Source: Planctomycetota bacterium
Lineage (GTDB): Bacteria > Planctomycetota > Brocadiia > CAIUPP01
DNA length: 64,000 nt
Reading direction: 5' to 3'
NCBI GenBank assembly: GCA_022705425.1
Contig: JAKJEM010000001.1
Coordinates: 260,515-324,514, forward strand
Shown here: positions 369 through 30,747 of the stretch, piece by piece
Layout of the letters: the number at the start of each line of letters is the position of its first letter
Numbering within the stretch: position 1 is the stretch's first letter
Program-made: the position numbers and the translations under genes
The notes under the pieces: model-generated
The model's database searches: none
What the model saw: the letters and a program-made list of their open reading frames with translations, nothing else
Told to the model about the DNA's origin: nothing

Positions 369-1337
369 ATGTCGCATCGGCGCTTTCTGTCGGCGGTCGT
401 CGCGATCCTTCTGGCGGCAACGGTATGGGCGGCGGGGGACGCGCCCGCTCCGGCGGCGTCGGCGGCGTCTCCCGCGCCGAAGGACGGCGTGACCGAGGGC
501 GGCCCCGTGGCCATACGCGTCGGGGTCTATGTCCTCAACCTCGGCAAACTGGACATCAGCACCGGCTCCTACACCGTGGATTTCTACATGTCCATGAAGT
601 CCGACCAGCCCATGAGCGAACCGGCTTTCGAGTTCACCAACGGGCGCGCCGCCAGCATCGAAAAGCTCGAAGACAAACCCACCGAGAAGTTCTACCGCAT
701 CCTGGCCAACCTCAACACCCCCATTGACCTTCGCAAGTTCCCCTACGACAAGCAGGAACTGCGCATCGTTATCGAGGACAAACGCGAGACGATCGAGAAG
801 CTCAAGTACGTCCCCAATCCCTCCGAAACGGCCATTGACCCCGCCATCGTCTTCCCCGGCTGGATTCTCGACGACTGGCGCGCCACGTCCGTCGAGCACG
901 ACTACCCCGTCTATGGCGAGAAGTACTCCCAGTACATCTTTGCCGTCCAGATTCACCGCATCAAAATGAACTCCTTCCTCAAGACCTTCCTGCCCGTCCT
1001 CTTCATCATGCTCATCGTCGTGTGCAGCTTCTTCATGGACGAGGACAAGATCATCACCCGCATGGCGACGATCAGCTCCGCCTTGATCGCCTCGGTGATG
1101 TTCCACGTGTCCATCTCGAACCAGATTCCTCCCGTCAGCTACGTCACCTTCGCCGACAAGTTCATGATGACCACCTATCTGGTCCTGTTGCTCTGCTACT
1201 TCCTGAGCCTGGCGGTCTTTGTGCTGCACGGCAAGGCCAGCGCCGAGCGCGCCAAGCGGCTTCACCGGATGGGCGAACTCATCGCCTTCTTCGGCGTGCC
1301 GGCGCTCTACTCGATCCTCTTCATCTTCCTGCGGTGA
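369..1337 (+). CDS. Prokaryotic pentameric ligand-gated ion channel (GLIC/ELIC-like)
   Basis: Signal peptide, beta-rich extracellular domain with LRKFPYDKQEL (Pro-loop), GW motif, pre-M1 Arg, M1 Pro (FLPVL), M2-M3 loop IPPVSYVT, four TM helices; ATG at 369 chosen as start. Confidence 0.85.
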   Translation: MSHRRFLSAVVAILLAATVWAAGDAPAPAASAASPAPKDGVTEGGPVAIRVGVYVLNLGKLDISTGSYTVDFYMSMKSDQPMSEPAFEFTNGRAASIEKLEDKPTEKFYRILANLNTPIDLRKFPYDKQELRIVIEDKRETIEKLKYVPNPSETAIDPAIVFPGWILDDWRATSVEHDYPVYGEKYSQYIFAVQIHRIKMNSFLKTFLPVLFIMLIVVCSFFMDEDKIITRMATISSALIASVMFHVSISNQIPPVSYVTFADKFMMTTYLVLLLCYFLSLAVFVLHGKASAERAKRLHRMGELIAFFGVPALYSILFIFLR

Positions 1338-1346
1338 GGCGGCGTC

Positions 1347-3083
1347 ATGGCCCCTGCGCGCATCCCGCGTCCCGAGCACCCCGAACCGCAGCGCCTCCGC
1401 GAGGATTGGCTGAACCTGAACGGCCCGTGGGAGTTCGAGTTTGACCCGGGCCTCAGCGGCGAGGAGCGCGGCTGGCACGAGGGCTCCTGCGCGTTCAGCC
1501 GCCGTATCCGGGCGCCGTTCTGCCCCGAAAGCGCGCTCTCCGGCGTCGGTTGCCGGGACTTCATGCCCGGCGTGTGGTACCGGCGGCACGTTGTCCTGCC
1601 TGCGGCATGGCGCGGGAAGCGGGTTCGCCTGCACGTCGGCGCGGCCGACTACGATACTGCCCTCTGGGTCAACGGGCGGCTCGCGGGGACGCATCGCGGC
1701 GGATATGTCCCCTTCGTCTTCGACGTGACCGACCTTGTCAAGGCCGGACGCAACACCATAACCCTTCGCGCGGCCGACGACACCCGCAGCCCCCTCCAGC
1801 CCACGGGCAAGCAGTCCCGCCGATACGAATCCCACGGCTGCCGCTACACCCGGACCACCGGCCTGTGGCAGACCGTCTGGCTCGAAGCCGTTGGACAGAC
1901 CTATCTGCGCGACTTCCGCTTCCTGCCGGCGTCGGGGCGGGTGACCGTTCTTGCCCGGCTTGAAGGCGACCCTTCGGGCCTCGTTCTTGATGTCGCCGTG
2001 ACCGCCGCCGGGCGCGCGGTCGGGCGCGCCGAGGCGCCCGCCGCCGGGACCACGGCCCTGACTGTGGATCTCTCCGAAACCCGCCTTTGGAACCCCGGCA
2101 AGCCCTTCCTGTATGATGTCCTCTTCACCTTGCGCCGCGGCGCGCGCGTCGTGGACCGCCTCCGCTCCTACTTCGGAATCCGCGACCTCCGCATCGCCGG
2201 ACGCCGGTTCCTCATCAACGACCGGCCCGTCTTCCAGCGCCTGGTCCTCGACCAGGGGTTCTATCCCGACGGCATCTACACCGCGCCCGACGATGCCGCT
2301 CTGCGGCGCGACATCGAACTCGCGCAGACGATGGGCTTCAACGGCGCGCGGCTGCACGAGAAAGTATTCGAGCCCCGTTTCCTCCACTGGGCCGACCGGC
2401 TCGGATATCTCGTGTGGGGTGAATATCCCAACTGGGGCCTGGACCACGCCCACCCGTCCGCGCTCGAGCGCATGCTGCCGGAGTGGACGGAGGTTGTGCA
2501 CCGCGACTGGAACCACCCCTGCCTCGTCGGCTGGTGTCCCTTCAACGAAACACCGGCGCACCAGAACCCCGAGCTGATCCGCGCCGTGTACCGCGCCACG
2601 AAGGCTCTCGACCCCACTCGTCCCGTCCTCGACACAAGCGGCTACCAGCACGTCGAGACGGACGTGGATGACTGCCACAGCTACGAGCAGGACCCCGCCG
2701 CCTTTGCCGCGCTCTTCGAGCCCATGAAGCGCGGCGGCCCCGTCTGGCACAACCGCGCCCAGGACGCGCCGAATCGGGGCCAACCCTACTTCGTCAGCGA
2801 GTACGGCGGCATCTGGTGGAACCCCGGCCAGGCCGATGACAGGGGCTGGGGCTACGGCGGCGCAGCCCGCCGTCCTCGCTCTGAGGCGGAGTTCCTCGCC
2901 CGTTATCGCGCGCTGACGGAGACCCTGCTGCGGCACCCGGAGATGTTCGGTTTCTGCTACACGCAGCTCTACGACGTGGAGCAGGAGGTCAACGGTCTCC
3001 ATACCTACTCCCGCCGCCCGAAGTTCGATCCCGCTGTCATCCGCGCCATCAATGCCCAGCGGGCGGCGATCGAGGGAGAATAG
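1347..3083 (+). CDS. Glycoside hydrolase family 2 (beta-galactosidase/beta-glucuronidase-like)
   Basis: WLNLNGPWEF, GLWQTVWLE, LVLDQGFYPDG, GFNGARLHEK, WNHPCLVGWCPFNE, SEYGG, TQLYDVEQEVNG. Confidence 0.9.
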   Translation: MAPARIPRPEHPEPQRLREDWLNLNGPWEFEFDPGLSGEERGWHEGSCAFSRRIRAPFCPESALSGVGCRDFMPGVWYRRHVVLPAAWRGKRVRLHVGAADYDTALWVNGRLAGTHRGGYVPFVFDVTDLVKAGRNTITLRAADDTRSPLQPTGKQSRRYESHGCRYTRTTGLWQTVWLEAVGQTYLRDFRFLPASGRVTVLARLEGDPSGLVLDVAVTAAGRAVGRAEAPAAGTTALTVDLSETRLWNPGKPFLYDVLFTLRRGARVVDRLRSYFGIRDLRIAGRRFLINDRPVFQRLVLDQGFYPDGIYTAPDDAALRRDIELAQTMGFNGARLHEKVFEPRFLHWADRLGYLVWGEYPNWGLDHAHPSALERMLPEWTEVVHRDWNHPCLVGWCPFNETPAHQNPELIRAVYRATKALDPTRPVLDTSGYQHVETDVDDCHSYEQDPAAFAALFEPMKRGGPVWHNRAQDAPNRGQPYFVSEYGGIWWNPGQADDRGWGYGGAARRPRSEAEFLARYRALTETLLRHPEMFGFCYTQLYDVEQEVNGLHTYSRRPKFDPAVIRAINAQRAAIEGE

Positions 3084-3153: not shown

Positions 3154-4224
3154 ATGGGCCTTCGCGAAGTCCAAGCGTCCGTGTGTGGGCTGAACGGTCT
3201 GCGGGTGGGGTTCGTCGGGCTCGGCCACAACGGCATCGCGCACGCGAAGGCGCACCGGCGGGTCGGGAAGTCCGTGGTGCAGGCGCTGTGCGATCGGAAC
3301 GCAACGCGGCTGGCCGAAGCCGGACGGGAACTCGGTGTGACGCGACTCTATGAGGGCGACGAAATCTACTCGGACCCGACAGTGGACGCGATCTCGATCC
3401 ACACCGGCGACCCGTTTCACGTCGAGCCGTTCCTCAAGGCGCTTGAGCACGGAAAACACGTGCTCGTCGAGAAGCCCGTGGCGAATAGCATCGAGCAGTT
3501 GCGGCAGATGGCCGACGCGGCAAGGCAGGCGGATCGGAGGCTGAAGATCCAGTGCGGGTACGTTCTGCGCTTTGACGCCGTATTCGAAGCCGTGCAGGAG
3601 CTATGCCGCAAGGGGATGATCGGGCGCATCTTCTACATGGAGGCCGACTACATCCACAATCTCCACTACCAGAAGGACCGGGCGGATCCGACGACGGGGC
3701 GGAACTGGTACCTGGAGGAGGAGCAGCCGATCGTGGGCGGCGGAAGCCATGAGCTGGACCTGCTCCGGTGGTTCAGCGGACGCGAGGTCGTCGAGACGAC
3801 CGGTTACGCGAACCATGTGGCCTTTCCCGAGATGCGTCATGACGACTTGCAGGTGGCGCTCTTCCGCTTCGACGACGGCGCCGTCGCGAAGGTCGCAGCG
3901 GCCTACGGTCCGATGACCGCGCGTCCGCCCTATGCCAATCTGGTCCTCTACGGCACGCGGGGGACGGTAAAGGACGACAGCGTCGCCATCGCAAGCGGCC
4001 CGCACAACGCGCATCCGGCCTTCAGGCCGATCGGCGGGCCGAGGACGAAGGGGCATCCTTTCGAGCCGGAGATCGCCGACTGGCTGGCGGCCATCGCGGA
4101 GGACCGGCCGACGCGCTGCGGCTTCTTCGACGGCGCGAACTCGACGGCGGCGACGCTCGTGGCCGTCGAGGCGATCGCGCAGCGGCGGCCGTTGCCCGTT
4201 CCGGTGTTCACACCGCATTCGTAG
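3154..4224 (+). CDS. Gfo/Idh/MocA family oxidoreductase
   Basis: VGFVGLGHNG Rossmann motif, HVLVEKP, GGGSHELD; SD-like AAAGGAACGGAG before ATG 3154. Confidence 0.9.
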   Translation: MGLREVQASVCGLNGLRVGFVGLGHNGIAHAKAHRRVGKSVVQALCDRNATRLAEAGRELGVTRLYEGDEIYSDPTVDAISIHTGDPFHVEPFLKALEHGKHVLVEKPVANSIEQLRQMADAARQADRRLKIQCGYVLRFDAVFEAVQELCRKGMIGRIFYMEADYIHNLHYQKDRADPTTGRNWYLEEEQPIVGGGSHELDLLRWFSGREVVETTGYANHVAFPEMRHDDLQVALFRFDDGAVAKVAAAYGPMTARPPYANLVLYGTRGTVKDDSVAIASGPHNAHPAFRPIGGPRTKGHPFEPEIADWLAAIAEDRPTRCGFFDGANSTAATLVAVEAIAQRRPLPVPVFTPHS

Positions 4225-4296
4225 CGCAGCGCGCAAGGCCGGGCGCGGGGGCGCGACGCCGTCGCCCGAGTTGTGGCGCGCTCCGCACAAATGCGC

Positions 4297-4328
4297 CGGG
4301 GAAGCGGCTCGCGCGAACCGCTTCCCCG
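4297..4328. terminator. Strong hairpin between convergent genes (possible bidirectional terminator)
   Basis: CGGGGAAGCGG...CCGCTTCCCCG, 11-bp perfect stem; no clear U-tract. Confidence 0.5.
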
Positions 4329-4348
4329 TCCATGTTTTCCGGCGTGCG

Positions 4349-5701
4349 CTACCGGCGGAAGAACTGCGGCAGCCACCGGCGGTTGGCTTCGAGCAGTTCC
4401 TCCATCATCTTCTCCATCTGGCGGAAGTCGCGGATCGAACCGCACATGGGGTCGTTGAGCATCACCTGCAAGACCATCTTCCGGTCGCCCGTCAGGGCCG
4501 CCTCGACGGTCATCTCCTGGTTGGCGGCATGGCGCTGGATCTGGGTCAGGATCGCCGGCGGCACGTCGCCCACGGGCAGGCCGTAAACGTGATCGCGCGA
4601 GATGAGGCCCATCGTCTCCACCACGACGCCGTTCGCGATGCCCGGCACCTGTCCCTCGTTGGGGATGTTGACGATGTCCTTCCATTCCGCCACGCCCGCC
4701 AGCGCGGCCACGACCTTGCTGGTGGCCTCCTGTGAGCACTCGGCCTTGATCGGCTCCTCGCTGGCGGTGATCTTGCGGACGCGCTCCTTCCAGCGCGGCG
4801 TGAAGCCGTTGCGGCGGTCCTCGATGCGCGTCAGCTTGACTCCGTACTCCTCGCACTGCTTTTCTTCGGTACAGAAGTAGGGGAAGAACTCGACGATGTG
4901 GCGGTCGCCGGCGGCCGGCAGGCAGCCGTAGGCCTGGAAGAGCTCAAACTTGACCTGATTGCTCCCGACGAGGGTCTCATCGAAAGCCGTGCCGGCGCCC
5001 TTCTTCGTGGAAAGCGCTGCCGTGTTCTTCGCCAGCGCCCGGCGGATGAGGGGGAAGGCGTCTTGTCCGTTGTACTTCAGGCGGGTGATCCACGGCATGT
5101 GGTTGACGCCCACGCTGACGCAATCGAAGTCCTTGCGCCAGTCCTTGGCCCCGAGGAGCTTCTGGAGGCGCGCCAGCGTGCCGTAGAGTTCGTGGCACAG
5201 GCCGATGCACCGAACGTCCGTCTCACGCCAGACACAGCGCGTGAGGGTCGTCATGGGGTTCGTGATGTTCAGGATCCAGGCGTCGGGGCAGTAGCGCTCC
5301 ATCTGCTTCGCCAGCTTGACGACGACGGGAATATTGCGCAGCGCGCGGCTGATGCCGCCGGGGCCGACGGTGTCGCCCACCGGTTGCCAGATGCCGTACT
5401 TGTACGGAATCTTCAGGTCGTTCTCCATGGCGTCGTAGGCCCCCGTCGTGATCGTCAGGATCACGTAGTCGGCGCCGCGCAGGGCCTTCTCCGCGCTGAG
5501 TGTGGCGCTCAGCTTGAACCGCCGCGTCTTGCCCAGCTGTCCCAGAATCGCCTTGCAGCAGGCGTGCAGGTCGCTCAGGTGCTTGGCGTTGATGTCCTGC
5601 AGGACGATCTCGGCCCCCTCCAGTCCCGGCGTGCAGATGAAGTCGCGAAAGAGCGTCGGCGTCCAGCAGTACGAACCTCCTCCCACCACGGTGATCTTCA
5701 T
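4349..5701 (-). CDS. Glycoside hydrolase family 4 (NAD+-dependent; alpha-galactosidase/alpha-galacturonidase-like)
   Basis: MKITVVGGGS, DTVGPGG, NITNPM, GLCHE, GVNH, GDRHIVEFFP. Confidence 0.9.
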   Translation of the reverse strand: MKITVVGGGSYCWTPTLFRDFICTPGLEGAEIVLQDINAKHLSDLHACCKAILGQLGKTRRFKLSATLSAEKALRGADYVILTITTGAYDAMENDLKIPYKYGIWQPVGDTVGPGGISRALRNIPVVVKLAKQMERYCPDAWILNITNPMTTLTRCVWRETDVRCIGLCHELYGTLARLQKLLGAKDWRKDFDCVSVGVNHMPWITRLKYNGQDAFPLIRRALAKNTAALSTKKGAGTAFDETLVGSNQVKFELFQAYGCLPAAGDRHIVEFFPYFCTEEKQCEEYGVKLTRIEDRRNGFTPRWKERVRKITASEEPIKAECSQEATSKVVAALAGVAEWKDIVNIPNEGQVPGIANGVVVETMGLISRDHVYGLPVGDVPPAILTQIQRHAANQEMTVEAALTGDRKMVLQVMLNDPMCGSIRDFRQMEKMMEELLEANRRWLPQFFRR

Positions 5702-5722
5702 GCGTTCTTCCTCGAAGAGAAC

Positions 5723-6637
5723 TCAGCCATAGAGCTTGTGGATTCGCGTCAGGACGTCCGCCTGCGTCAGGGGGATCGTCAGCGGCAGCAGGGCATAGCG
5801 CCCGTCCAGGTCCTTGCAGTCGAGGATGACATGCCGCGCGTTGGGCACGTGCAGCCCCTCCTTGCACGCCGTGTGTCCCACGATCAGCACGTCCGCGTCC
5901 AGGCGCGCGGCGAAGGCGTCCGCCGCCTCCGGTCGGTAGTCCCGCCCCCAGAGAAGGGAGAAGACCGGCCCCTCGCGCCGGAAGATTTCGTCGGGCGTCA
6001 CCCGGCGGAAGTAATCGAGGCTGAACGCCTCCGCCTTCTCCAACCGGGGCGTCGAGTGGCTCACCAGCAGGCGGTTTTCCGTGTGAATGGCCAGCGGACA
6101 ACTCCGCCAGAAGCGATGGTAGGCCTGGATCACGTCGTCGCTGCGGAAGCCGTAGGCCACCTCCACCCCGTCGCGAAAGGCGGAATTCAACTCGCGCCCG
6201 CGCTTGCCGATCTCCAGGTTCAACAACTCGGAGAACTCGTGATTTCCCAGGAGGATGTGGACCTGGTGGGGGAAGGTTGTCTTCAGGCGGGCGGCCATCT
6301 CGATCAACCGGTATGAGCGGCAGACTTCGGTGATCGAATCAAGCTCGTGGACGAGTTCCTGAAGGACGAGGTAGCGATCGCGATAGCGCTGGAGGTTCGC
6401 CAGTTGGGTAATGCGGCGCAGATTGGCCGTGTGGCCGTGCAGGTCGCCGGTGACCATGACTTCCCCCAGCGCCGGAAGTTCGATCAGGTACCCGCGACGG
6501 CAGGAGTCGTTGATGTTCGCCTTGGTTGCCGCGTCCATCAGGGCGATGGCCAGGTCGGCTCCCACAGGCAGTGCATCGTCTTCGGTCATCGGCGGCGCCG
6601 GGGTCTCAAAGGTCGGAAAGGCCGTCCCGCTACTCAT
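5723..6637 (-). CDS. Metallophosphoesterase (calcineurin-like) with variant motif II
   Basis: GDLHGH, LQELVH, LLGNHE, SHS, VGHT; ATG at 6637 overlaps the stop of the upstream small ORF. Confidence 0.8.
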   Translation of the reverse strand: MSSGTAFPTFETPAPPMTEDDALPVGADLAIALMDAATKANINDSCRRGYLIELPALGEVMVTGDLHGHTANLRRITQLANLQRYRDRYLVLQELVHELDSITEVCRSYRLIEMAARLKTTFPHQVHILLGNHEFSELLNLEIGKRGRELNSAFRDGVEVAYGFRSDDVIQAYHRFWRSCPLAIHTENRLLVSHSTPRLEKAEAFSLDYFRRVTPDEIFRREGPVFSLLWGRDYRPEAADAFAARLDADVLIVGHTACKEGLHVPNARHVILDCKDLDGRYALLPLTIPLTQADVLTRIHKLYG

Positions 6638-6758: not shown

Positions 6759-6892
6759 GTCACCCTCCGCGGTCACGCATTCCTCTGTCCTGATGCGGCT
6801 GTGCGTCCGAGAGGAGTTTAACCGTCCCGCCCGGCGGAGTCAACAATGCCCGGCCGCGAAATGGCGCCCGCCGCCGGGGACGCGCGCCTGTC

Positions 6893-6921
6893 TTGCGCCC
6901 GCGCCTCGTCGGGGGTATTCT
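6893..6921 (+). promoter_or_regulatory. sigma70-like promoter for recG
   Basis: TTGCGC-17-TATTCT. Confidence 0.45.
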
Positions 6922-6969
6922 GACCCCAGAACGCCGTGGATCAGGGCGCGTTCCCCTCGGAGGTTGCCC

Positions 6970-9036
6970 ATGCCCGGACTCGACGACTCGGTTCAGTACG
7001 CCAAGGGCGTCGGGCCGGCGCGCCTCGACATGCTTAACCGCCTCGGCGTTCACAGCATCCGCGACCTGCTCTTCTTCGTTCCGCGCGACTACGAAGACCG
7101 GAGTCGCATCACGCCCATCAAGGACCTCCGCGTCGGCGACAAGGCCACCGTCCGCGCCCGAGTCATCGCCGCCGAAACGTACCGCGGCGGGCGCGGGCGC
7201 GCCATGGCCCGCGTCGAGGTGGCTGACGACACGGGGCATCTGCTCTGCCAGTGGTTCAACGCCCGCTACTTCCGCGCCGACCTCTTCACGCCGGGCCGCG
7301 AGATGATCATCAGCGGTACGGTCAGCTTCTACCGCGGCGTCCAGATGGTCTCCCCCCAGTGCGACCCGACCGACGGCGGCGAGGCATTCTCCGCCGCCCG
7401 CATCCTGCCGGTCTATCCCCTGACCGAGGACCTCCCGCAGAGCGGCCTGCGCCGCGTGATCCGGAGCGCCGTCGAGCAGCACGCGTCCGACCTGCCCGAT
7501 CCCTTCGACGCCGAGTACCTCAAGACGCGCGATCTTCCCGCGCTTTCCGAGGCCGTGCGGGCCATTCACGTCCCCGAGTCCCTCGAACAGGCCGCGCGCG
7601 CCCGCCGGCGCCTGGCCTATGACGAGCTCTTCATCCTGGAACTGGCGATGGCCCTCCGCCGCCGCGGCGTCCGCGCCGAGGAGTCGGGCATTGCCTTCCG
7701 CCTGACCCCCGAGATTGACGCGCGCATCCGGCGGCGGTTCCCTTTCGCGCTCACCGGCGCTCAGCGTCGCGTCATCGAGGAGATCGGCCGCGACATGCAG
7801 GCGCCCAAGGCTATGAACCGCCTCCTTCAGGGCGACGTCGGTTCCGGCAAGACGGTCGTCGCCCTCTACGCCATGCTTCTGGCCGTGGCCAACAAGCGGC
7901 AGGCGGCGCTCATGGCCCCGACGGAAATCCTCGCCGCCCAGCACCACGACACGCTCCGGCGGTACCTGGCCGGCAGCCGTGTGCGCCTCGAACTGTTCGC
8001 CGGAGGGCGTCCGGCGCGCGAGCGCGAAGCCGCCAATCGCCGCCTGGCCGCCGGGGAGATAGACATCGCCCTCGGCACGCACGCGCTTGTCGAGGGGGAC
8101 GTCCGCTTCCAGAACCTGGGTCTTGTCGTCGTGGACGAACAGCACAAGTTCGGCGTCCTCCAGCGCGCCCGCCTGCGCCAGAAGAGCCTCCATCCCGACG
8201 TGCTGCTCATGACCGCCACCCCCATCCCCCGGACGCTCGCCCTCACCGTCTTCGGCGACCTCGACGTTTCGACGCTGGACGAGATGCCGCCGGGACGGCG
8301 TCCGGTCGCTTCGCGCTGGTACCCGCCGGAGAAGCTCCGCGACGCTCACGAGTTCATCCGCGCCCGCGTGGCCGCCGGCGAGCAGGCCTTCGTCGTCTAT
8401 CCCCTCGTCGAGGACTCCGAGACCCTCGACCTGAAGGCCGCCACCACCAGCGCCCTTCAGCTTCAGCGCGAGGTCTTCCCCGAGTTCCGGATCGGCCTCC
8501 TGCACGGGCGCATGAAGCCCGACGAAAAGGAACGCGTCATGGTCGAGTTCCGCGCCGGGCGCTACCACATCCTCGTCTCCACCATCGTCATCGAGGTCGG
8601 TATTGACGTGCCGAACTCCACGATCATGGTCATCGAACACGCCGAGCGCTACGGCCTGGCTCAACTGCATCAACTGCGCGGGCGGGTCGGCCGGGGCGAG
8701 AAGCCCTCCTTCTTCCTGCTCTTTGCCGAGCCGAAGAACGACGACGCCCGCCGCCGCCTGGACGTTATCTGCTCCACCACCGACGGTTTCAAGATCGCCG
8801 AGGAGGACCTTCGAATGCGCGGGCCGGGGGAGTTCTTCGGCACGCGCCAGCACGGTCTGCCGGAGCTGCGGCACGCCGACATTCTGCGCGATTTCCGGCT
8901 GCTGCAACTCGCCCGGCGCGACGCCTTCGATCGCGTCGCGCGCGATGCCCGCCTGGCCGATCCCGCCAATGCGCTCTTGCGGGCGCGCCTGGAGGAGACC
9001 TTCAAAGGGCGCATGGACCTGATCCAGGTCGGCTAG
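6970..9036 (+). CDS. recG: ATP-dependent DNA helicase RecG
   Basis: VQYAKGVG, RLLQGDVGSGKT, VDEQHKFG, MTATPIPRT, QLHQLRGRVGRG, DGFKIAEEDL.MRGPGE. Confidence 0.97.
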   Translation: MPGLDDSVQYAKGVGPARLDMLNRLGVHSIRDLLFFVPRDYEDRSRITPIKDLRVGDKATVRARVIAAETYRGGRGRAMARVEVADDTGHLLCQWFNARYFRADLFTPGREMIISGTVSFYRGVQMVSPQCDPTDGGEAFSAARILPVYPLTEDLPQSGLRRVIRSAVEQHASDLPDPFDAEYLKTRDLPALSEAVRAIHVPESLEQAARARRRLAYDELFILELAMALRRRGVRAEESGIAFRLTPEIDARIRRRFPFALTGAQRRVIEEIGRDMQAPKAMNRLLQGDVGSGKTVVALYAMLLAVANKRQAALMAPTEILAAQHHDTLRRYLAGSRVRLELFAGGRPAREREAANRRLAAGEIDIALGTHALVEGDVRFQNLGLVVVDEQHKFGVLQRARLRQKSLHPDVLLMTATPIPRTLALTVFGDLDVSTLDEMPPGRRPVASRWYPPEKLRDAHEFIRARVAAGEQAFVVYPLVEDSETLDLKAATTSALQLQREVFPEFRIGLLHGRMKPDEKERVMVEFRAGRYHILVSTIVIEVGIDVPNSTIMVIEHAERYGLAQLHQLRGRVGRGEKPSFFLLFAEPKNDDARRRLDVICSTTDGFKIAEEDLRMRGPGEFFGTRQHGLPELRHADILRDFRLLQLARRDAFDRVARDARLADPANALLRARLEETFKGRMDLIQVG

Positions 9037-11552
9037 CCCGGCTCCGAACGGGACGGGTGACGCCCCCGCGTCAATCGCCGTCCGGAATCGAGGAGCAGCA
9101 GGATGCTCTGCATCTTGTGCCATTCGCCGGCCAAGGCCGTGAACTGCGCCACCTTGCCGGGCTCGAAGAGGGGATAGCACTCGCGGAAACGGCGACGCCA
9201 GGCCGCGGGCAGGTCGGGCCACGGCACAACGAACGGCGCCGGACGGCTTGCCGCGCCGGGGCGTCCGTAGCGCGCCTCGGGCCGGGGGAGGAGCCGCAAG
9301 CGCGGTTCGCGCAGGTGCGCCCGCGCCCGGGCCGCCAGGGCCGCGTCGCCGGTCCGCGTCCACACGTAGGCGACCAGGTCGGCCAGGATGGTCGTCGCCC
9401 ACCGGTCGCTCAGCGCCGCCGCCTCCACCCGTTCGTCTCGGCGGCGGAGGTGTCGCGGCTGCAACTGGTAGCGCAGGAAGCGCGTCAGAGCCCCCCGCAA
9501 CGGCTCGTGGTCCAGCGTTTCCGCCAGTTCGATGTACGTCTGTGGACCGCCGAAGGAGCCGAACATCATGAGGCGGATCGGGGCCTCGCCCGGGACCGGA
9601 CGCGCCGTCCTCCGCGCGGCGTCCAACTCCACGGACGCCGCCATTCGGCCTGTCTCGTCCACAGCCTCCGCCAGGGCGTCGGCGATGCGCCGCAGCCACT
9701 CCGTGGTATCGGCCAGACCCGTCTCCCGGGCGAACAGCAGATTCGAGACGATCGCCGGGGCGTCGCACGTGCCGTTGGTGACGCGCGCCGGCGTGAAGCG
9801 CCGTGTCGTCGCCGCCAGGAAGACCTGCGCCAGGTCCAGAACCGATCGGTCGCCCGTCAGGTAATAGAGGAACCGCTTCCCGATCGGCTGGCTGATGCGC
9901 GTCTCGTGGCACTGGTCCCCCCAGTGGTTGACGTTGTGCCGCGACCCGAAGCCCGCCGCCGGCCCGATGTGGCGGCAGTCCACGTCCATCACGTGGCGCG
10001 TCATCGCCCGCGCCAGAGTGAAGGCGTCCTCGCGCCCGGTGATGAAGAACGCCTGCCACAGGCCCAGGCAGGGCAGGAGTTCGTCATTGCAGTAGCCGAG
10101 GCCCCCGTAATCGTGGCACCAGCGCCCCTGCGTCCAGTCGAAGCTGTGCGGCAGGTCGAAGTAGTCGAGGTACCCTGTGCCCCCCTCGCGCCGCATTGCT
10201 GCGCCCAGGAAGTCGAGCCACTCGTGGATCGCCGCCACGCGTTCCCGGTCGAAACGCCGCGCCGCCGGGTTGACCGCCCCCGTGTCCGCAAAGTAGTCCG
10301 GCGTCCAGCGCAGCTTCAGCGGCCGGTTCCACGAAAGCGTCGTCGCCGCCGGATTCGGTTCGTTGAACATGAGCAGGACGTCATGGGTCTTGCGGATGCC
10401 CCGCGCGTTGAAACGTTCTTTGTCGAAGGGGATGGGTTTCCGAGAAGTGTACGCCGGCGCTTCGTACATCTGCGGATAGACGAAGTCGCTGTAACGGCGC
10501 AGGTCGAGGCGGTCGGCCCGCGCCGGGTAGAGGCCGACGCGCATCTCCCCGGTGGCGGCGTCCGCCGAGAGCGCTTTGGGGTGATTCTGCGCGAACTCGC
10601 GCACGGCGACCGCCACGCGAGCGCCCGCTCCGGCCAGTTCCATCCAGCCGTCGGCGACAATGCCCTCCCGGCAGAAGACTTCACGCCGGTTGAGGTCCAC
10701 CCAGCGCCGGAGTCGCCAGTGCGTTACCGAGTCCTGATAGAGCTCCGCGTGTCGGAAATCGGGCGTCCACACCGGCGCGCGCTGCCGGGGAAAGCGCGTC
10801 TCGCGCCCGACGTCCGCCCCAAAGGCGAACAGCGCCGCCTTCCCGACCCGCGCTCTCAACCGAAGCTCCGACGCCCGGACGAAGTCGCGCTCGGGGTCTC
10901 CGTCGTAGATCACGCTGTGCGTCAGACGCAGGTCGCGGCGTCCGGCCAGGATCTCGAAGCGCAGTACATAGGGGGCGAAGGTTCGTCCGTCGGAGGAGCG
11001 GTGTTCCCCCCGCACGGCGACGACCGCCCGGAGGCGTCCGCTGACCTCGATCTCCAGGCGGCGCGGCGCGGCACCGGCGAAGTAGTCCGTGCGCGCGGCA
11101 TCGCGCTCAACGGTCATGACCGATTCCAGTCCCGTCGCGAGGCAGCGCCAGGCGCGGCCGCTCCGCGCCTCGATACGGCCCGTCAGCGGCCCGCGGCGGC
11201 GCAGGGTGAAGCGTAGCGCGCCTGTGTTCACGGTCACTCCGGCGGGCGTCGTCCGAAGGACCAGCCCCGGCCCACGTGCGGGACCTCCGACCGCCAGGCG
11301 CAACGTTCGCGTTGCGCCGGGGGCGATGTCGAAGTGCGGCGCGGCCAGGAGCGCCCATTTCCCGCTCCCGTCCGGCCAGCGCGCCAGGAACGCGGCTTCT
11401 GATTCGGTCCGCCGGCCAGCGGCGTCCGTCAGGTGCAACGTTTCCGCCTCTCTCGCAACGCCCTGCGGCAACGGCACGCCCCACACCAGGGGCGGGCGGG
11501 GGGCGGAGAAGCCCGTCTCTTCCCGCACCGTCAGCATCGTGATCGTCTTCAT
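9033..11552 (-). CDS. YetA/PcRGLX-like (PL26) exo-rhamnogalacturonan lyase family protein
   Basis: N-terminal WGVPLPQG; core DYFDLPHSFDWTQGRWCHDYGGLGYCNDE...MTRHVMDVD...GSRHNVNHW...RISQP resembles the PcRGLX/YetA catalytic region. Confidence 0.7.
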   Translation of the reverse strand: MKTITMLTVREETGFSAPRPPLVWGVPLPQGVAREAETLHLTDAAGRRTESEAAFLARWPDGSGKWALLAAPHFDIAPGATRTLRLAVGGPARGPGLVLRTTPAGVTVNTGALRFTLRRRGPLTGRIEARSGRAWRCLATGLESVMTVERDAARTDYFAGAAPRRLEIEVSGRLRAVVAVRGEHRSSDGRTFAPYVLRFEILAGRRDLRLTHSVIYDGDPERDFVRASELRLRARVGKAALFAFGADVGRETRFPRQRAPVWTPDFRHAELYQDSVTHWRLRRWVDLNRREVFCREGIVADGWMELAGAGARVAVAVREFAQNHPKALSADAATGEMRVGLYPARADRLDLRRYSDFVYPQMYEAPAYTSRKPIPFDKERFNARGIRKTHDVLLMFNEPNPAATTLSWNRPLKLRWTPDYFADTGAVNPAARRFDRERVAAIHEWLDFLGAAMRREGGTGYLDYFDLPHSFDWTQGRWCHDYGGLGYCNDELLPCLGLWQAFFITGREDAFTLARAMTRHVMDVDCRHIGPAAGFGSRHNVNHWGDQCHETRISQPIGKRFLYYLTGDRSVLDLAQVFLAATTRRFTPARVTNGTCDAPAIVSNLLFARETGLADTTEWLRRIADALAEAVDETGRMAASVELDAARRTARPVPGEAPIRLMMFGSFGGPQTYIELAETLDHEPLRGALTRFLRYQLQPRHLRRRDERVEAAALSDRWATTILADLVAYVWTRTGDAALAARARAHLREPRLRLLPRPEARYGRPGAASRPAPFVVPWPDLPAAWRRRFRECYPLFEPGKVAQFTALAGEWHKMQSILLLLDSGRRLTRGRHPSRSEPG

Positions 11553-15406: not shown

Positions 15407-16339
15407 CTACCCCTTCCGGGCGCTGCGCAGGAAGGCCTTCGTCTCCGGCAGGCTGGGAATGCCTGCCCGTCCGCCGAGCTTCCGGCACTTCAGCGCCGCC
15501 ACCGCCGCCGCCAGTTCCGCCGCCTTCTTCAACTCCATCTCCTGCGACAGCGCGTAGGCGAAGGCGCCGTGGAAGACGTCGCCGCAGCCGGTGGTGTCCA
15601 CGATCTTCGGCGGCTTGAAGGCGGGCTGGTGGAACTCGCCGCCGCGCCACACGAAATAGCTGCCCTTCGCTCCGGACGTCACGGCCACGACCTTGTCGGG
15701 GTCGGCGGCGCTCAGCTTGCGGAAGTACTTGCGCGCGGCGGTCTGGAAATCGCACTTGCCCACCCGGCTCTGCGCGAAACGCAGGCTGGCCACGACGTGG
15801 GTTGAAAGGGCCGCCAGCCGGTCGTTCTCCGGCGGCGTCAGCTCCGCGTCCATGAGGATCGCCATTCCCTCCTTGCGCGCGTACTCCGCCGCGCGGATCG
15901 CGGCGGCCACCTGGAACCCGTCCACGAACAGGACCTTGCCCGCGATCACATCCGCCCGGCGGACTTCGCCGGGGTTCACCACCGGGGCGTCGTCGAGGCA
16001 GTAGTAGAGGGTGCGGAAGCCCTTGGAGGGGTTGATGACGCCGATGGTTCGGATGGCCGACATGCCGGGGGCGGTGCGGATGCACGAGGTATCCACACCC
16101 TCGCTCCTGAACTCGTTCACGATAAAGCGGGCGTGGTCGTCGTCGCCGAGCTTGCCGATGAAACGAGCCCTGCCGCCCAGGCGCGCCACGGCCACGAGCC
16201 CCGTCGCCACCAGTCCGCCGCCCTGGCGCGTGGTCCCGTAGACCTGCATCTTCTGGTCTTCCTCGATGGGACCTTCATAGATGCCGAGCGTGTCCACGGC
16301 GCAGCAGCCCACGCCGACGACGTCAAAGGTCTCTTGCAT
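15407..16339 (-). CDS. PfkB family carbohydrate kinase
   Basis: GGGLVATGLVAVARLGG, VDTTGCGDVFHGAF; SD GAGGGA before ATG 16339 (alternative leaderless start at 16381). Confidence 0.9.
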   Translation of the reverse strand: MQETFDVVGVGCCAVDTLGIYEGPIEEDQKMQVYGTTRQGGGLVATGLVAVARLGGRARFIGKLGDDDHARFIVNEFRSEGVDTSCIRTAPGMSAIRTIGVINPSKGFRTLYYCLDDAPVVNPGEVRRADVIAGKVLFVDGFQVAAAIRAAEYARKEGMAILMDAELTPPENDRLAALSTHVVASLRFAQSRVGKCDFQTAARKYFRKLSAADPDKVVAVTSGAKGSYFVWRGGEFHQPAFKPPKIVDTTGCGDVFHGAFAYALSQEMELKKAAELAAAVAALKCRKLGGRAGIPSLPETKAFLRSARKG

Positions 16340-16387
16340 GGGGGATTCCCTCGTTCTTGCGATGGTCTCCGAGAGCGGCATGCCCGG

Positions 16388-16417
16388 AGTATAGGCCGCA
16401 CGCGCCCCCTCCGTCAA
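16388..16417 (-). promoter_or_regulatory. sigma70-like promoter for pfkB-type kinase
   Basis: TTGACG-18-TATACT on the minus strand, 6 nt upstream of ATG 16381. Confidence 0.65.
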
Positions 16418-16501
16418 GCGCGGCCGCGCCGCCGCGCTGTGCCACATTGCCCTCGCAACTGACCGGTTACGCGCGCCCCGTTTCGTCGCCCCGCGTCCGA
16501 C

Positions 16502-17674
16502 CTACGGGGTGTCTATCCCCGCCTGCGTGTCGAAATCGTGCCAGACGATGTTGTTGTTGGTGTCGTTATCGCGCCCCGTCGGCCAGTTGTCGTTCAGGGC
16601 GTTGTCGTGAATCCAGGAGGTGTAAAAGTGGTCGTAATAGTCGCCGTCTCCCACCCACCAGATGAAGCGCTGCTGCTGATCGGAGGCCCAGGCCACGTGG
16701 CCGTCGCCGTAGAGGACGTTGTAGCCCTCGCGGTGAGCGTAGTAGCCGCAGCCGGGCACTTCGCTGCCCTTCCACAACGGCGCGCCAGCAGGGATGTTGA
16801 CGTCCGGGCCGCCCTTCGAGAAGGAGTCCGAAAAGACCGAGCGACCGCCGAGTAGTTTGCTGGTCTTGAAGGGCGGGCAGCCGGGGATCGCGTAAACGAA
16901 CGGCTTCGTCCAGATGATCCGGTTGCGCGTCTTCGTCCAGGTTGTTCTGCCCGGATAGTTGGCCGCCGTGATGCCGGGATTGTCGCCCACGGCGTAGCGA
17001 TTGCCCATGAACGTCCCGCGGTAGTTGTAGGCGCATTGCACGGCCAGGCCGGTCGTGCCCTCCACCTTGCCCGCCCAGCCCCAGTCGCCGTAGCTCAGCG
17101 TCCGTCCGTCAAAGCCCCCCGCCCGCTTCCAGTGCCCCAGGCTGAAGAGGGTCATTCGCGTGTTCGGATTGTCCGGGCCCATCCCTTCCGACGAGGGGCA
17201 GTAGAAGACCCGCGCATCATTCAGGTAACCGGTGGTCAGAAGGTACCCCAGACCCTGTGGGGCGATGTTGAGTTGTCCGGCGGCAACCGGCATGTAGTCC
17301 AGCGTGCCGGTGGCGGGGTTGTAGCTTCGCCCGTATCCCAGGTTGCGCAGCAGCGGGCTGCCGTTCCAGATGATCTGCGCCGAGCCCTTGACGATCTTTC
17401 CGGTGTGGGGGTCGGCGTAGAGCCCGAAGCCGTAGTCGTAGGGGTCGTAGGAGTATCCCCAGCCGCCCCAGGAGGGGAAGTACTCGTCGTAGTCGGCCAG
17501 GTAGTTCATCAGGGCCTTGTTGACCTGGTCCATCTGTCCCATGCACGCCGAGCGGCGGGCCTTTTCCCGCGCGCTCGCCAGGGCGGGCAGGAGCATGGCG
17601 GCGAGAATGGCGATGATGGCGATAACGACCAGCAACTCGATCAGCGTGAATGCGCTCCATCGAATCCGCAACAT
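16502..17674 (-). CDS. Prepilin-type N-terminal cleavage/methylation protein with H-X9-DG motif (DUF1559-like), copy 1
   Basis: [35 protein letters not shown]; CPSS; GCPPFKTSK; [12 protein letters not shown]. Confidence 0.9.
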
Positions 17675-19718: not shown

Positions 19719-21488
19719 TCAGCGGCAGGCGGCCTTGAAGTTGCCGACGGCCTCGGAGGTCCGCAGGGCGCGACCATACAGCCTAAGCAGAAGCAGGCGT
19801 CCCTGCAAGCCTGTCGCCAGCCGCGCCTGGGGCGAGCCGTTGGCCGAGACGAACCAGGGGCTGAAGCGCCCCCAGCCGAAGGCGCGTTCCGCCCCGCCAT
19901 CGCCCAGCCGCCCGTCCACGACCAGGGTGATCACACGCGGCCCGCCATCCACCGTCACGACGACATGGCGCCGCCGTCCGGCCTCAAGAACCCCGACGTC
20001 ACTCGTCCAGCGGGCCTCGGTCTGGCCGTCGTTCAAGAGGACCTCGACCCTTCCCTGTTCAGCCGTGCGCACACACAGCCCTTGTCCGCCGGGGAGCCGG
20101 CTGTCCAGGATGCCCTGTCCCGGAGATGCGGCGGCGAAGTCCGCCATGAACTCGATGCTGAATCCGTGCCGCAGCGACAGCGCCCCGAAGTCCGGGCGGC
20201 TGCTGTCCCGCACGCAGAAGGCCGGCAGGGGGGGCATGGGGCGCTCTCCCGTCAGGCCCGCCTCGTCGGCGAAGGACACCAGCTCCTCGCCGGCAACGCG
20301 CCCCGCCGACTCGAACTGCCCCCACAGGCCTTCGACCAACTCGCGGCTGACTTCATGAACGCGCCCGAGATTTTTCTGGGTCTCGGTGATGAAGTAGCGC
20401 CCGCCGTCCTCGATCAGGTCGGGATAGCTGATTCGGACGAAGGGGTCGTCGTCATAGAGGACGATCTCCGGCTGCGACCAGCGGATCACGCGGCCCTCGG
20501 GGCCGTCGGCCTCGACACCGCCGGCGAGCCAGGCCGGATTGCGCCAGTCCCAACTGCGCCCGCCGTTGTGGTGGAACCAGAGCAGGAACTTCCCATTGGC
20601 GCAGCGCCAGGCGAAGCACGCCGCGCGGGGAGTCTTGATGCGGCGGCCATCCGCAAAGGCGGCATAGGCGGGAACGCTCCAGGTGCGACCGCCATCGCGG
20701 CTGTAGGCGCAGGCGGGGTGCCCGTCGCGCGTGCGGTAGATACAGTGAAAGGAGCCGTCGCTCAGGGGCGCAACGCTTTGCTCCTCGGCCACCGTTCCGC
20801 CGCCGGGGGGCGTCCGCAGTCCGACATCTCCCTCCGGCCAGGTATGCCACGCGGCCTTGGCGGGGTCGGACACCGTCAGCAGGTCGGGGCTGTGGAGCAG
20901 CGCGCCCTCGGACTGTCCGAACCCCATGTCGCGGAGTTTGATGAGCGGGCAGTACACCTCGCCCTTGTGGATGAAGGGCCGCCCGACGTTCCAGAAGAAG
21001 CGCACCTCCCCGCCGTAGAGGTTCTGGCGATCGCAGGCGAAATCCCGGACCGGAACGACGTAGCGTTCCCGCGACCAGGTGCGCCCGCCGTCGTCGGTGT
21101 ACCGGAAGACGTAGTCGCCCAGCGTGTCCACTCTGCGGCAAAGGCCGTCCTTGAAGGGCGGATTGCAGGCGCGGACCTCGCGGAGGTTGCGCGCGTTGTA
21201 GTTGTAGAAGCAGTAGATCCGTCCCCCTGGCGTCTTGAGGAGGACGGAGTAGGCCGATTCGGGGCCGTTCGGGCTCTCCAGCGGCACGGGTTCGGACCAG
21301 GTGCGTCCAAGGTCCGTGCTGCGCATCGAACGCACGTGCTGGCCCGGCTCCCCCTCATGGCCGGGGCCCGTCGTCACGGTGCACAGCCATGCGCCGTCCT
21401 CCGTGCGTACGACATAGGGCTGGTCGGCATAGCGAAGCGTCGGGAAGGGGTACCCTTCGACGATCAGGCGCGGGTCGCGCGGCGGCAT
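19719..21488 (-). CDS. BNR/Asp-box sialidase-like protein with C-terminal LamG-like domain
   Basis: Asp boxes STDLGRTW, TDDGGRTW, SRDGGRTW; C-terminal HVVVTVD...LVVDG...LRLYGRAL. Confidence 0.8.
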   Translation of the reverse strand: MPPRDPRLIVEGYPFPTLRYADQPYVVRTEDGAWLCTVTTGPGHEGEPGQHVRSMRSTDLGRTWSEPVPLESPNGPESAYSVLLKTPGGRIYCFYNYNARNLREVRACNPPFKDGLCRRVDTLGDYVFRYTDDGGRTWSRERYVVPVRDFACDRQNLYGGEVRFFWNVGRPFIHKGEVYCPLIKLRDMGFGQSEGALLHSPDLLTVSDPAKAAWHTWPEGDVGLRTPPGGGTVAEEQSVAPLSDGSFHCIYRTRDGHPACAYSRDGGRTWSVPAYAAFADGRRIKTPRAACFAWRCANGKFLLWFHHNGGRSWDWRNPAWLAGGVEADGPEGRVIRWSQPEIVLYDDDPFVRISYPDLIEDGGRYFITETQKNLGRVHEVSRELVEGLWGQFESAGRVAGEELVSFADEAGLTGERPMPPLPAFCVRDSSRPDFGALSLRHGFSIEFMADFAAASPGQGILDSRLPGGQGLCVRTAEQGRVEVLLNDGQTEARWTSDVGVLEAGRRRHVVVTVDGGPRVITLVVDGRLGDGGAERAFGWGRFSPWFVSANGSPQARLATGLQGRLLLLRLYGRALRTSEAVGNFKAACR

Positions 21489-27051: not shown

Positions 27052-27144
27052 GGAGTTGCTCCCGCTGCACTGGAAGGGGAAGAGAACAAAATCCATTATA
27101 CCGGAGACGCTCCGTCGTGCGCCACGTTTTGCGTCAGAAGGAAC

Positions 27145-27173
27145 TTGACTTGCTTTCGGGGCGATGCTACCAT
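27145..27173 (+). promoter_or_regulatory. sigma70-like promoter for LacI/DUF1559 operon
   Basis: TTGACT-17-TACCAT with TGn extension; a divergent TATAAT lies on the minus strand at 27095-27100. Confidence 0.7.
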
Positions 27174-27187
27174 GAATATATAGTACC

Positions 27188-27199
27188 GCTAACGTTAGC
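27188..27199. promoter_or_regulatory. LacI-type operator palindrome GCTAACGTTAGC
   Basis: Perfect 12-bp palindrome with central CG, 14 nt downstream of the -10 box and 32 nt upstream of the LacI ATG. Confidence 0.7.
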
Positions 27200-27231
27200 A
27201 TAACCGCGCGGCTTATGCAAGGCGCTTGGCG

Positions 27232-28224
27232 ATGCCGACGCTGAAGGACATTGCGGCGCAGACTGGGTACCACGTGACCACCGTGTCGCGGGTTCTCACG
27301 GACAAGGGCGACCGCGTGATCTCTCCCGCGGCGCGGGAACGCATTCTCGCCGTCGCGCAGGACCTTGACTATCAACCCCACTTCCTCGCCCGCAGCCTCC
27401 GGCGGCGTCGGACCTTCCTCATCGGCGTGGCCGGCTCCCTCTTCGGCTCCGAAACGCGCGCCATGCAGATGCGCAGTCTCGTCGGACCCTTCGAGAAACA
27501 CGGATACGGCCTCCTCTTCCAGGACTCCTACAACCTCTTCGCCGCCGAAAAGCGCGCCGTCCGCGAGCTGGTGACGAAGGGGGTCGAGGGCCTTATCCTT
27601 CAGTCCTACGCCGGCGAAGCGGAACTCGCCGAGATGCTGCCCGCGAACATCCCCTGCCTGCTGCTGGTCGAGCGTCCGGTCAAGGCGGCGCCTTGCGTGG
27701 TCATGGACTATGCCGCCGGGGCGGCGCTGGCGGTGCGGCGGCTGGCGGAGATGGGACATCGCCGGATCGCCTGGCTGCGCATCGGGCGCGTGACCGGCGC
27801 GCAGCGCTACGAGGGCTACTGCCGGGCGATGGAGGCGCTGGGCCTGCGCGACGACGCCCTGGCCCCGGAGATGACCGGCGAGCGCGGCTTCGTCCGGCAA
27901 TACGTCATCGAGCGCGCCGACTTCTTCCGCTCCGTCACCGCCATCCTGGCGCCCGGCGACCGCTGGGCGGGCGAGGCCGTCGGCGGCCTGCGCTGCATCG
28001 GGCTTCGCGTGCCCGAGGACGTCTCCGTCGTGGGCTATGACGATTCCGAGTTTGCCTTCGCCGCCGATCCGCCGCTGGCCTCGATCCGCCACCCGCATGA
28101 GGAGGTCGGCCAGACGGCAACGGCGATGATGCTGGCGCTGATCGAAGGGCGTCGTCCGGGACACGCCGTGCTGGCGCCGCAGTTTGTCGAGCGGGCCTCC
28201 GCAGGCCCGTGTCGTCGCGCGTGA
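27232..28224 (+). CDS. LacI family transcriptional regulator
   Basis: TLKDIAAQTGYHVTTVSRVL HTH; LDYQPHFLARSL; VPEDVSVVGYDD; LASIRHP. Confidence 0.95.
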   Translation: MPTLKDIAAQTGYHVTTVSRVLTDKGDRVISPAARERILAVAQDLDYQPHFLARSLRRRRTFLIGVAGSLFGSETRAMQMRSLVGPFEKHGYGLLFQDSYNLFAAEKRAVRELVTKGVEGLILQSYAGEAELAEMLPANIPCLLLVERPVKAAPCVVMDYAAGAALAVRRLAEMGHRRIAWLRIGRVTGAQRYEGYCRAMEALGLRDDALAPEMTGERGFVRQYVIERADFFRSVTAILAPGDRWAGEAVGGLRCIGLRVPEDVSVVGYDDSEFAFAADPPLASIRHPHEEVGQTATAMMLALIEGRRPGHAVLAPQFVERASAGPCRRA

Positions 28225-28266
28225 CGTCGCGCGGGCCGAAAGGTCCGAGCCGAAGGAGGGAGAGTC

Positions 28267-30646: not shown

Positions 30647-30747
30647 ACGTCTCGACGCCGGCGTCCCCGCGCCGCCAGGTCGCGAATTGCGCCGTGGGTT
30701 GTGGCCGCGTCCCCGGCGCCCGTATCCCGCGCCCCCATCGAGGAACT

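Follow-up and report, generated by a model that had tools for sequence, protein, structure and literature searches.

Prokaryotic ligand-gated ion channels of the pentameric type (pLGICs) serve as structural models for human neurotransmitter receptors, and to our knowledge hardly any of them has a known natural agonist or physiological role. ELIC, from Erwinia/Dickeya, is a cysteine-less pLGIC with a full-length extracellular domain (ECD) and is gated by small primary amines and GABA at an aromatic-acidic orthosteric pocket. Here we describe a gene at positions 369-1337 of a 64,000-nucleotide stretch of planctomycete DNA (contig JAKJEM010000001.1; the whole stretch is referred to below as the window), which an earlier note on this DNA had taken for a GLIC/ELIC-type pLGIC gene within a sugar-catabolic operon. 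Like the Pro-loop receptors inventoried by Jaiteh et al. in 2016, the family to which its product belongs has a conserved Pro-loop, a sporadic distribution and signs of lateral transfer between archaea and bacteria (PMC4795631). In that inventory archaeal members were confined to the Euryarchaeota and Thaumarchaeota, and Planctomycetes are absent from the main text, which we did not search for DPANN (PMC4795631). We find that the window gene represents a compact, strongly conserved clade of this superfamily. We judge it probable, at roughly 60%, that the product is a small-molecule-gated homopentameric channel and not a GLIC-type proton sensor, and that its wiring into a sugar cluster is specific to one lineage and does not define the ligand.

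Identity of the gene and its product

Coordinates are positions in the window and residue numbers refer to the channel protein. The open reading frame (ORF) at 369-1337 on the forward strand is a genuine gene. It begins with an ATG at 369, ends with a TGA at 1335-1337 and encodes 322 amino acids plus the stop; a Shine-Dalgarno sequence, GGAGGA, can be read from the sequence itself at 358-363 of the same strand, 5 nt before the ATG. The identical gene call was present in two independent public assemblies, a Joint Genome Institute (JGI) metagenome contig and an NCBI metagenome-assembled genome (MAG) contig.

The product is a member of the pLGIC, or Pro-loop receptor, superfamily, with a similarity far beyond chance that spans both the ECD and the transmembrane domain (TMD). 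NCBIfam profiles LGIC_1 and TIGR00860 matched at 2.3e-18 and 9e-16, respectively, and the best solved relatives were chains of GLIC (e.g. PDB 3eam), at E~1e-11 with the single sequence and at 1e-24 to 7e-28 once a family profile of 31 sequences was used, which covered GLIC residues 15-314. The hidden Markov model search that the earlier note had named as a check (Neur_chan_LBD and Neur_chan_memb) detected both Pfam domains, yet with scores short of the gathering thresholds (23.7 vs 28.1 and 18.4 vs 26 bits), which probably explains why all named database relatives carry the label 'hypothetical protein'. With 66.6 bits against a curated cut-off of 500, the protein is related to the NF033918 LGIC_1 subfamily without being a member of it.

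An AlphaFold2 monomer model built on the family alignment (mean predicted local distance difference test score, pLDDT, 84.9; predicted template modelling score, pTM, 0.71) consists of a beta-sandwich of 9 strands and then four helices. All of the top 50 Foldseek matches in the PDB were pLGIC chains (GlyR, GLIC, GABA-A, RDL) with a probability of 1.00, the best at E of about 3e-20 and a template modelling (TM) score of about 0.65; among them the anionic Cys-loop receptors GlyR alpha2/alpha3, GABA-A beta3 and RDL were on a par with GLIC. Profile matches, similarity to GLIC and modelled fold together bear out the identification made in the earlier note.

The window protein resembles GLIC in overall fold and size and in lacking both a cytoplasmic domain and the cysteines of the Cys-loop. 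The Pro-loop, the pre-M1 Arg, the M1 Pro, Ser at 6', a hydrophobic residue at 9', the Pro/Tyr of the M2-M3 loop and the Gly-Trp of loop B are also shared, whereas overall identity is only about 17-20%. Identity to the anionic Cys-loop receptors is 14-20%, and four of their features are missing from the window protein: the Cys-loop disulfide, the Pro(-2')-Ala(-1') motif, the cytoplasmic loop between M3 and M4 and the N-terminal helix. There is no Cys anywhere in the channel ECD, the only Cys residues being located in M1 and M3.

The layout of the protein, encoded throughout on the forward strand, begins with a predicted Sec signal peptide at residues 1-21 (MSHRRFLSAVVAILLAATVWA; 369-431), suggested by a basic N-terminus, a hydrophobic helix at residues 2-19 of the model and a small-residue VWA motif. 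A low-complexity, Ala/Pro-rich linker follows (residues 22-45, 432-503; pLDDT about 50), whose length varies within the family and which is unaligned there. The compact extracellular, or periplasmic, beta-sandwich occupies residues 46-198 (504-962), its strands being taken from the model, and has no counterpart of the GLIC beta2-beta3 loop and beta3. Within it, the Pro-loop F124-P125-Y126-D127 (738-749) is the cysteine-free equivalent of the Cys-loop, with its Pro and Asp present in 120/120 homologs. Model and family alignment place M1 at residues 199-220 (963-1028), with the pre-M1 R197 just upstream. The M2 pore helix was assigned to residues 225-252 (1041-1124) from its alignment with GLIC M2 and the statistics of the family, and leads into the M2-M3 coupling loop I-P-P-V-S-Y at residues 253-258 (1125-1142). 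M3 (residues 259-288) and M4 (residues 292-321) together span 1143-1331 and are joined in the model by a 3-residue turn, with no cytoplasmic domain. We found no second channel paralog within the 64-kb window. The 50-nt leader was also considered as a possible regulatory RNA, and throughout the 64 kb no Rfam family reached its gathering score.

Coupling elements and pore

Family statistics were drawn from 120 homologs, and pore positions are numbered by alignment to GLIC M2. The GLIC sequence used in the global alignment agrees with the GLIC fragments in the profile matches and with published residue numbers. The global hmmalign alignment left the GLIC beta1-beta2 region unaligned, and GLIC E26, D32 and E35 were mapped from the local profile alignment instead.

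The full set of elements that couples the ECD to the pore is kept. It comprises K60/D62 in the beta1-beta2 loop, the FPxD of the Pro-loop (D127 corresponding to GLIC D122), the pre-M1 R197 (GLIC R192) and the Pro/Tyr of the M2-M3 loop P254-P255-V256-S257-Y258, where P254 and Y258 align with GLIC P247 and Y251 and are both found in 120/120 homologs. The M1 Pro, P209, is invariant. Every motif that the earlier note had named (FPYD, pre-M1 Arg, M1 Pro, 9' Ile and PPVSY) is present.

Along M2, position -2' is I229 (T/A/V/S in the family), -1' is T230 (Thr in 117/120), 0' is R231 (Arg in 119/120), 2' is A233 (A/G/T) and 6' is S237 (Ser in 119/120). A hydrophobic gate at 9'/13'/16' consists of I, M and V: I240 at 9', equivalent to GLIC I233, is Val in 96/120 and Ile in 16/120 homologs (V or I in 112/120), M244 at 13' is Met in 119/120, and V247 at 16' is V/I. 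Position 20' is N251 (N/G/S). The absence of Glu from -1' and -2', remarked on previously, was confirmed. Neither selectivity signature occurs, the window protein having I229-T230-R231 where cationic channels carry a -1' Glu and anionic ones Pro(-2')-Ala(-1')-Arg(0'). Without the Glu that cation channels have at -1' and without the Pro-Ala of anionic ones, the pore is atypical. It shares the Arg at 0' and the lack of a -1' Glu with the anionic Cys-loop receptors, and differs from that of GLIC in the Met at 13', the Arg at 0' and the missing -2' Glu.

A compact extracellular domain with invariant binding loops

The ECD had been thought to be shorter than that of GLIC, and this proved correct: its core, from G52 to R197, measures 146 residues, against 172 in GLIC (G21 to R192). 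In the profile alignment most of this loss of ~26 residues falls in one 20-residue deletion at GLIC ~54-73, which removes the beta2-beta3 loop and beta3, with two further trims of 3 residues each. A core of 145-148 residues was found in 101 of the 120 homologs, and since the length is so similar across them, the compact ECD is a trait of the clade.

Conservation within the clade is high, with 45 positions identical in at least 118 of the 120 sequences. These near-identical positions include a block around M2/M3, M244-F245-H246 ... Q252-x-P254 ... Y258-x-T260 ... D263. All six canonical binding loops also contain residues that are invariant or nearly so: D71 and Y73 in loop D, E88 and F89 in loop A, K107, Y109 and R110 in loop E, E136, D137 and K138 in loop B, D157 in loop F, and H177, Y179, Y182 and Y186 in loop C. 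As an analogy, and as a lead only, ELIC may be the closest functional parallel to this combination of an invariant, Tyr-rich loop C with an acidic loop B.

A C-x3-C pair is present in the shortened beta2-beta4 connector, between Y73 and E88, in 66/120 homologs, mostly archaeal, and might form a disulfide of non-canonical type. In the window protein this connector is free of Cys.

Size and distribution of the clade

A search of 5.8 billion proteins returned 568 matches, the top 120 of which all fell below 1e-94 and shared 46-79% identity with the window protein. Searching 1.84 billion cluster representatives exhaustively with a profile gave 349 clusters (at 50% identity) below 1e-30, lying within a continuum of 7,502 pLGIC-like clusters. 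Among species-representative genomes, an alignment-based scan confirmed 112 channel loci. The best 80 of these 112 comprised about 70 archaeal and about 10 bacterial loci. The archaea were mostly DPANN (Woese-, Pace-, Nano- and Aenigmatarchaeota), and the bacteria were Planctomycetota including 'Brocadiia', Victivallales, Chlamydiae and one bin labelled Alphaproteobacteria. DPANN members share 50-60% identity with the planctomycete protein, implying both gene transfer between the two domains and strong constraint.

No paper came up in full-text literature searches that combined 'ligand-gated' with DPANN or Woesearchaeota, or Planctomycetes with 'pentameric ligand-gated ion channel'. The clade is large, unannotated, unusually conserved and absent from the searchable literature.

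Some bins carried odd labels, among them several 'Methanosarcinales' and the 'Alphaproteobacteria' bin (L047), which has a G+C content of 34%; these may be mis-binned or mislabelled. A Chlamydiae MAG (L079) carries a tandem, same-strand pair of pLGIC paralogs, at 3533-4570 and 4654-5742, the upstream one with a weak Neur_chan_LBD match.

The local gene cluster

The channel gene is part of a series on one strand that runs in the order 1,426-amino-acid protein, HpcH aldolase, 50-nt gap, channel, 9-nt gap, GH2 glycoside hydrolase, GFO/IDH/MocA oxidoreductase, and the coordinates agree with the placement in the earlier note, between an HpcH aldolase and a GH2 on the same strand and 9 nt from the latter. 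The protein heading the cluster has no Pfam match and lies 38 nt before the HpcH gene on another contig carrying the locus (L001, 641-4921). The HpcH/HpaI-family aldolase is truncated by the window edge, leaving its 3' end at 1-318 of the forward strand, and is 265 amino acids long on L001; it matched Pfam HpcH_HpaI at 6.3e-9, and its NCBIfam matches were weak ones only, to keto-deoxy-sugar-acid aldolases and far below cut-off. The GH2 gene (1347-3083, forward strand, 578 amino acids) has the Pfam domains Glyco_hydro_2_N, Glyco_hydro_2 and Glyco_hydro_2_C and a best NCBIfam match to beta-glucuronidase at 4e-45, below cut-off. Its ribosome-binding site, GAGG, overlaps the channel stop codon. 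The last gene of the cluster, on the same strand at 3154-4224 (gene call L002 8592-9662), is the oxidoreductase, assigned by Pfam.

Promoter and terminator scans of the cluster gave no signal above shuffled background. We noted that contigs assembled from RNA-type runs cross both junctions of the channel gene, one over the aldolase/channel junction (X3 1-710) and four over the channel/GH2 junction (X2 483-1529, X3 1211-1423, X11 1268-1498 and X15 1174-1538). Of the four runs, that of X15 is labelled TRANSCRIPTOMIC and the other three METAGENOMIC RNA-Seq. These contigs fit co-transcription of the channel with its flanking genes and expression in situ; they are not decisive, because of their low depth and possible DNA carry-over. 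The sugar-catabolic operon of the earlier note thus stands as a same-strand cluster with no detected terminator, while its transcription as a unit has the low-depth contigs in its favour.

On L001 there is a frame-breaking indel near the 5' end of the GH2 gene, at about 6785-7000 (window about 1347-1560), relative to the window and the NCBI MAG. The L001 gene call starts 225 nt late and the tblastn match is split over two frames; strain variation or a fault in the assembly is the probable cause.

Conservation of the gene context

Bacterial neighbourhoods were read by ORF-free tblastn together with Pfam-labelled public gene calls, as clusters built from longest ORFs are unreliable in GC-rich bacteria; for the AT-rich archaea, neighbour clusters from longest-ORF calling were retained. 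We used the window HpcH, GH2, GFO, GH4, Metallophos and PcRGLX proteins as tblastn queries against 96 channel loci (L001-L096, 1.05 Mb). Matches to these neighbours were found only on the window's own contigs (L001-L004), with the exception of GH2 at two loci (L094, L095). There a GH2 of 75% identity adjoins a channel, P0002, that is 79% identical to ours, at a gap of 277 nt vs 9 nt in the window. In the reverse direction, loci of GH2 orthologs (49-68% identity, many phyla) contained the channel in 0 of 80 cases and HpcH in just one of the 80.

Recent horizontal acquisition of the channel was considered and ruled out: its G+C content at third codon positions (GC3), 0.89, matches that of its neighbours (0.85-0.92), which gives no sign of recent acquisition and indicates a gene native to the genome, and the GH2 is kept beside the 79% relative.

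Elsewhere in bacteria the channel has varied company. P0003 neighbours ClpC/McsB, P0023 a FecCD-type ABC transporter, and P0042 has UxaC upstream and PMT_2 downstream; further bacterial loci place the channel by PTS-EIIA/HTH and MotA, by UppS and by CNNM-CBS-EIIA. The order UxaC (uronate isomerase)-pLGIC-PMT_2 (membrane glycosyltransferase) recurs in three 'Brocadiia'-type genomes (L011 4407-8734, L019 6282-10590 and L021 6334-10527), a second planctomycete lineage in which UxaC lies directly upstream of the channel on the same strand. In L012, the PMT_2 gene overlaps the channel stop codon by 4 nt.

At archaeal channel loci, cation transporters were the sole recurrent functional neighbours. 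Type-II P-type cation ATPases lie beside the channel at six loci (L032, L050, L060, L082, L088 and L092) and Na/H exchangers at four (L060, L083, L086 and L087). Their coordinates include L032 918-3566, L050 5222-7822, L060 5236-7863 and 8904-10103, L082 5202-7841, L083 740-2620, L086 6871-7713 and L092 5058-7697. The channels at the transporter-flanked loci are only 57-69% identical to each other. One Na/H exchanger carries a TrkA_N domain, and the L060 channel is flanked by both transporter types.

Host and surrounding window

The window RecG shares 72% identity with its counterpart in a 'Candidatus Brocadiia' MAG, against about 50-55% with those of other Planctomycetota. The MAG that supplied this closest RecG is also one of the three genomes with the UxaC-pLGIC-PMT_2 order (L021). 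Sequencing runs containing the locus were anaerobic-digester and sludge metagenomes.

A dense glycan-utilisation island occupies 9036-34500 of the window. It includes a PcRGLX-like rhamnogalacturonan lyase (9036-11552), a PfkB kinase (15410-16447) and a BNR/Laminin_G protein (19722-21488), all on the reverse strand, two giant DUF4838 proteins (24733-28887, reverse strand; 30694-34500, forward strand) and two planctomycete-typical DUF1559/N-methyl proteins (16505-17674, reverse strand; 29459-30643, forward strand). Counting from the start of the window, carbohydrate-active genes account for about 10 of the first 16 (HpcH, GH2, two GFO/IDH/MocA, GH4, PcRGLX, PfkB, BNR and two DUF4838, one of the latter with a GH2_N-like part). 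At a locus so rich in sugar genes, adjacency of a channel to a sugar gene is expected by chance and carries little information. The GH2 orthologs counted above (loci L177-L256) come from Latescibacterota, Chloroflexota, Paenibacillus, Clostridia and even Bathyarchaeia, and their presence in such distant phyla suggests a subfamily that moves readily between genomes.

Discussion

What gates this channel can be approached from its residues and from its neighbours. Were it a GLIC-like proton-gated channel, it would open when the periplasm turns acid, as might happen while sugars are fermented to acids. GLIC is its closest solved relative, the host comes from anaerobic digesters with fluctuating pH, and there are invariant His residues in the ECD (H177) and in M2 (H246, about 15'). 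Alkaline-gated and Ca-modulated prokaryotic pLGICs (sTeLIC, DeCLIC) indicate, however, that pH gating is not transferable by homology. Eight residues are reported to alter GLIC activation, E26, D32, E35 and D122 in the ECD and E222, H235, E243 and H277 in the TMD, with E35 the key proton sensor (Nemecz 2017, PMC5760087). Seven of them are replaced in the window protein (E26 by N57, D32 by I63, E35 by G66, E222 by I229, H235 by S242, E243 by S250 and H277 by F284), the Gly in place of E35 being invariant (120/120), and only the universally conserved Pro-loop Asp (D122, here D127) is kept. With E35 among the seven, proton gating of the GLIC type is not supported, and judged from the aligned residues such a channel is very unlikely; the earlier suggestion of gating by protons is not borne out by this comparison. 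The same residue-by-residue approach bears on the proposal that the channel senses or releases a pathway product, being gated by a sugar acid, uronate or other carboxylate that the GH2 and aldolase enzymes generate, and so linking membrane potential or ion flux to the breakdown of glycans. GLIC binds carboxylates in an inter-subunit pocket (R77, R105, E181 and N152) and a vestibular one (R85, Y102 and E104) (PMC10859675). Two of the arginines are kept, R85 as R93 (Arg in 118/120) and R105 as R110 (120/120), and their conservation speaks for such a ligand, whereas N152 is matched by D157, Y102 by K107, E104 by Y109, and the loop C residues E177 and E181 both by Tyr (Y186 for E181). R77, the pivot of the site, aligns with an invariant Glu, E88, an assignment that depends on the alignment, and this weakens the carboxylate reading; on the aligned residues, the pocket appears remodelled, not conserved. 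The motif N-G-R93 was also considered as the equivalent of the R77 pivot and was ruled out, both the profile alignment and residue counting giving R85.

Context adds to both sides of the carboxylate proposal. The tight same-strand arrangement with transcript contigs over the junctions, the GH2 kept beside the 79% relative and the UxaC directly upstream in an independent planctomycete lineage all favour it. Against these, the binding-loop residues are no less invariant across some 70 genomes of DPANN archaea and in bacteria where the neighbourhood is unrelated to sugars, the channel is missing from all 80 GH2-ortholog loci, the gap to GH2 widens to 277 nt in the closest relative, and carbohydrate genes make up more than half of the region, so that chance adjacency is likely. 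We consider gating by a sugar acid quite unlikely. The hint of a sugar-acid ligand or a glycan-catabolism link that the earlier note drew from the context was not upheld, as homolog neighbourhoods are unrelated, and essentially random, beyond the 79% relative; the sugar-cluster wiring looks recent and lineage-specific, and says little about the identity of the ligand. A different set of neighbours would make the channel a leak or valve for cation homeostasis, controlled by an inorganic ion (Ca2+ or another divalent, gating or inhibitory) and working with pumps and antiporters. Type-II P-type ATPases and Na/H exchangers are the only neighbour classes to recur in several lineages, a CNNM-CBS divalent-cation transporter adjoins the channel at one bacterial locus (L026), and several invariant ECD residues are acidic (D71, E88, E136 and D157). 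Yet the adjacency holds at only about 10/84 loci, none from the window lineage, the transporter loci are not phylogenetically independent, and an aromatic-rich loop C (Y179, Y182 and Y186) is seen more typically where the ligand is organic. We regard this valve as unlikely.

We therefore return to the reading we prefer, a small-molecule-gated homopentamer whose ligand is not defined by the sugar cluster. The gene would encode one subunit, and Sec export of the predicted product would leave the ECD facing the periplasm. A small molecule would then bind at the subunit interfaces, in the pocket formed by the clade-invariant residues of loops A-F, and its binding would open the pore and shift the ion content or the membrane potential. 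The channel would, in the window lineage, be co-expressed with the glycan and sugar-acid catabolic cluster. The amine and amino-acid sites of ELIC, GlyR and GABA-A resemble a mixed acidic-basic-aromatic pocket, and by this analogy a pocket that is acidic, basic and aromatic at once may best fit an amine, an amino acid or another zwitterionic ligand, which we offer as a lead only.

Several observations weigh against this reading. Two planctomycete lineages set the channel beside uronate or sugar-acid genes, HpcH/GH2 in one and UxaC in the other (L011, L019 and L021), and adjacency to uronate genes in two lineages could be a real, clade-restricted link. The loop A mapping of R77 to E88 lies beside indels, and two alignments place the 3-residue gap differently. 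The contigs that cross the junctions are low-depth (2-8x) assemblies, and the METAGENOMIC RNA-Seq runs could contain DNA.

A broader and speculative proposal, which we think improbable as it stands, is that this clade of minimal-ECD pLGICs has been kept across DPANN archaea and bacteria of the Planctomycetes-Verrucomicrobia-Chlamydiae (PVC) group because it recognises one universal small metabolite. In the DPANN archaea, which are genome-reduced and host-dependent, it might rapidly sense chemicals from the host or surroundings, in some cases in connection with cation pumps, and in some planctomycetes it might have been recruited into uronate/glycan operons. If true, no natural pLGIC scaffold would be smaller, and the clade would offer a new model of ligand gating.

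For annotation, the lesson is that operon context inside a glycan-utilisation island is weak functional evidence. The superfamily itself was already known, and what is new is a member of an uncharacterised clade. Missed by current Pfam thresholds, with a trimmed ECD and a highly conserved pocket, and spread over two domains of life, this clade is attractive for de-orphanisation and structure work.

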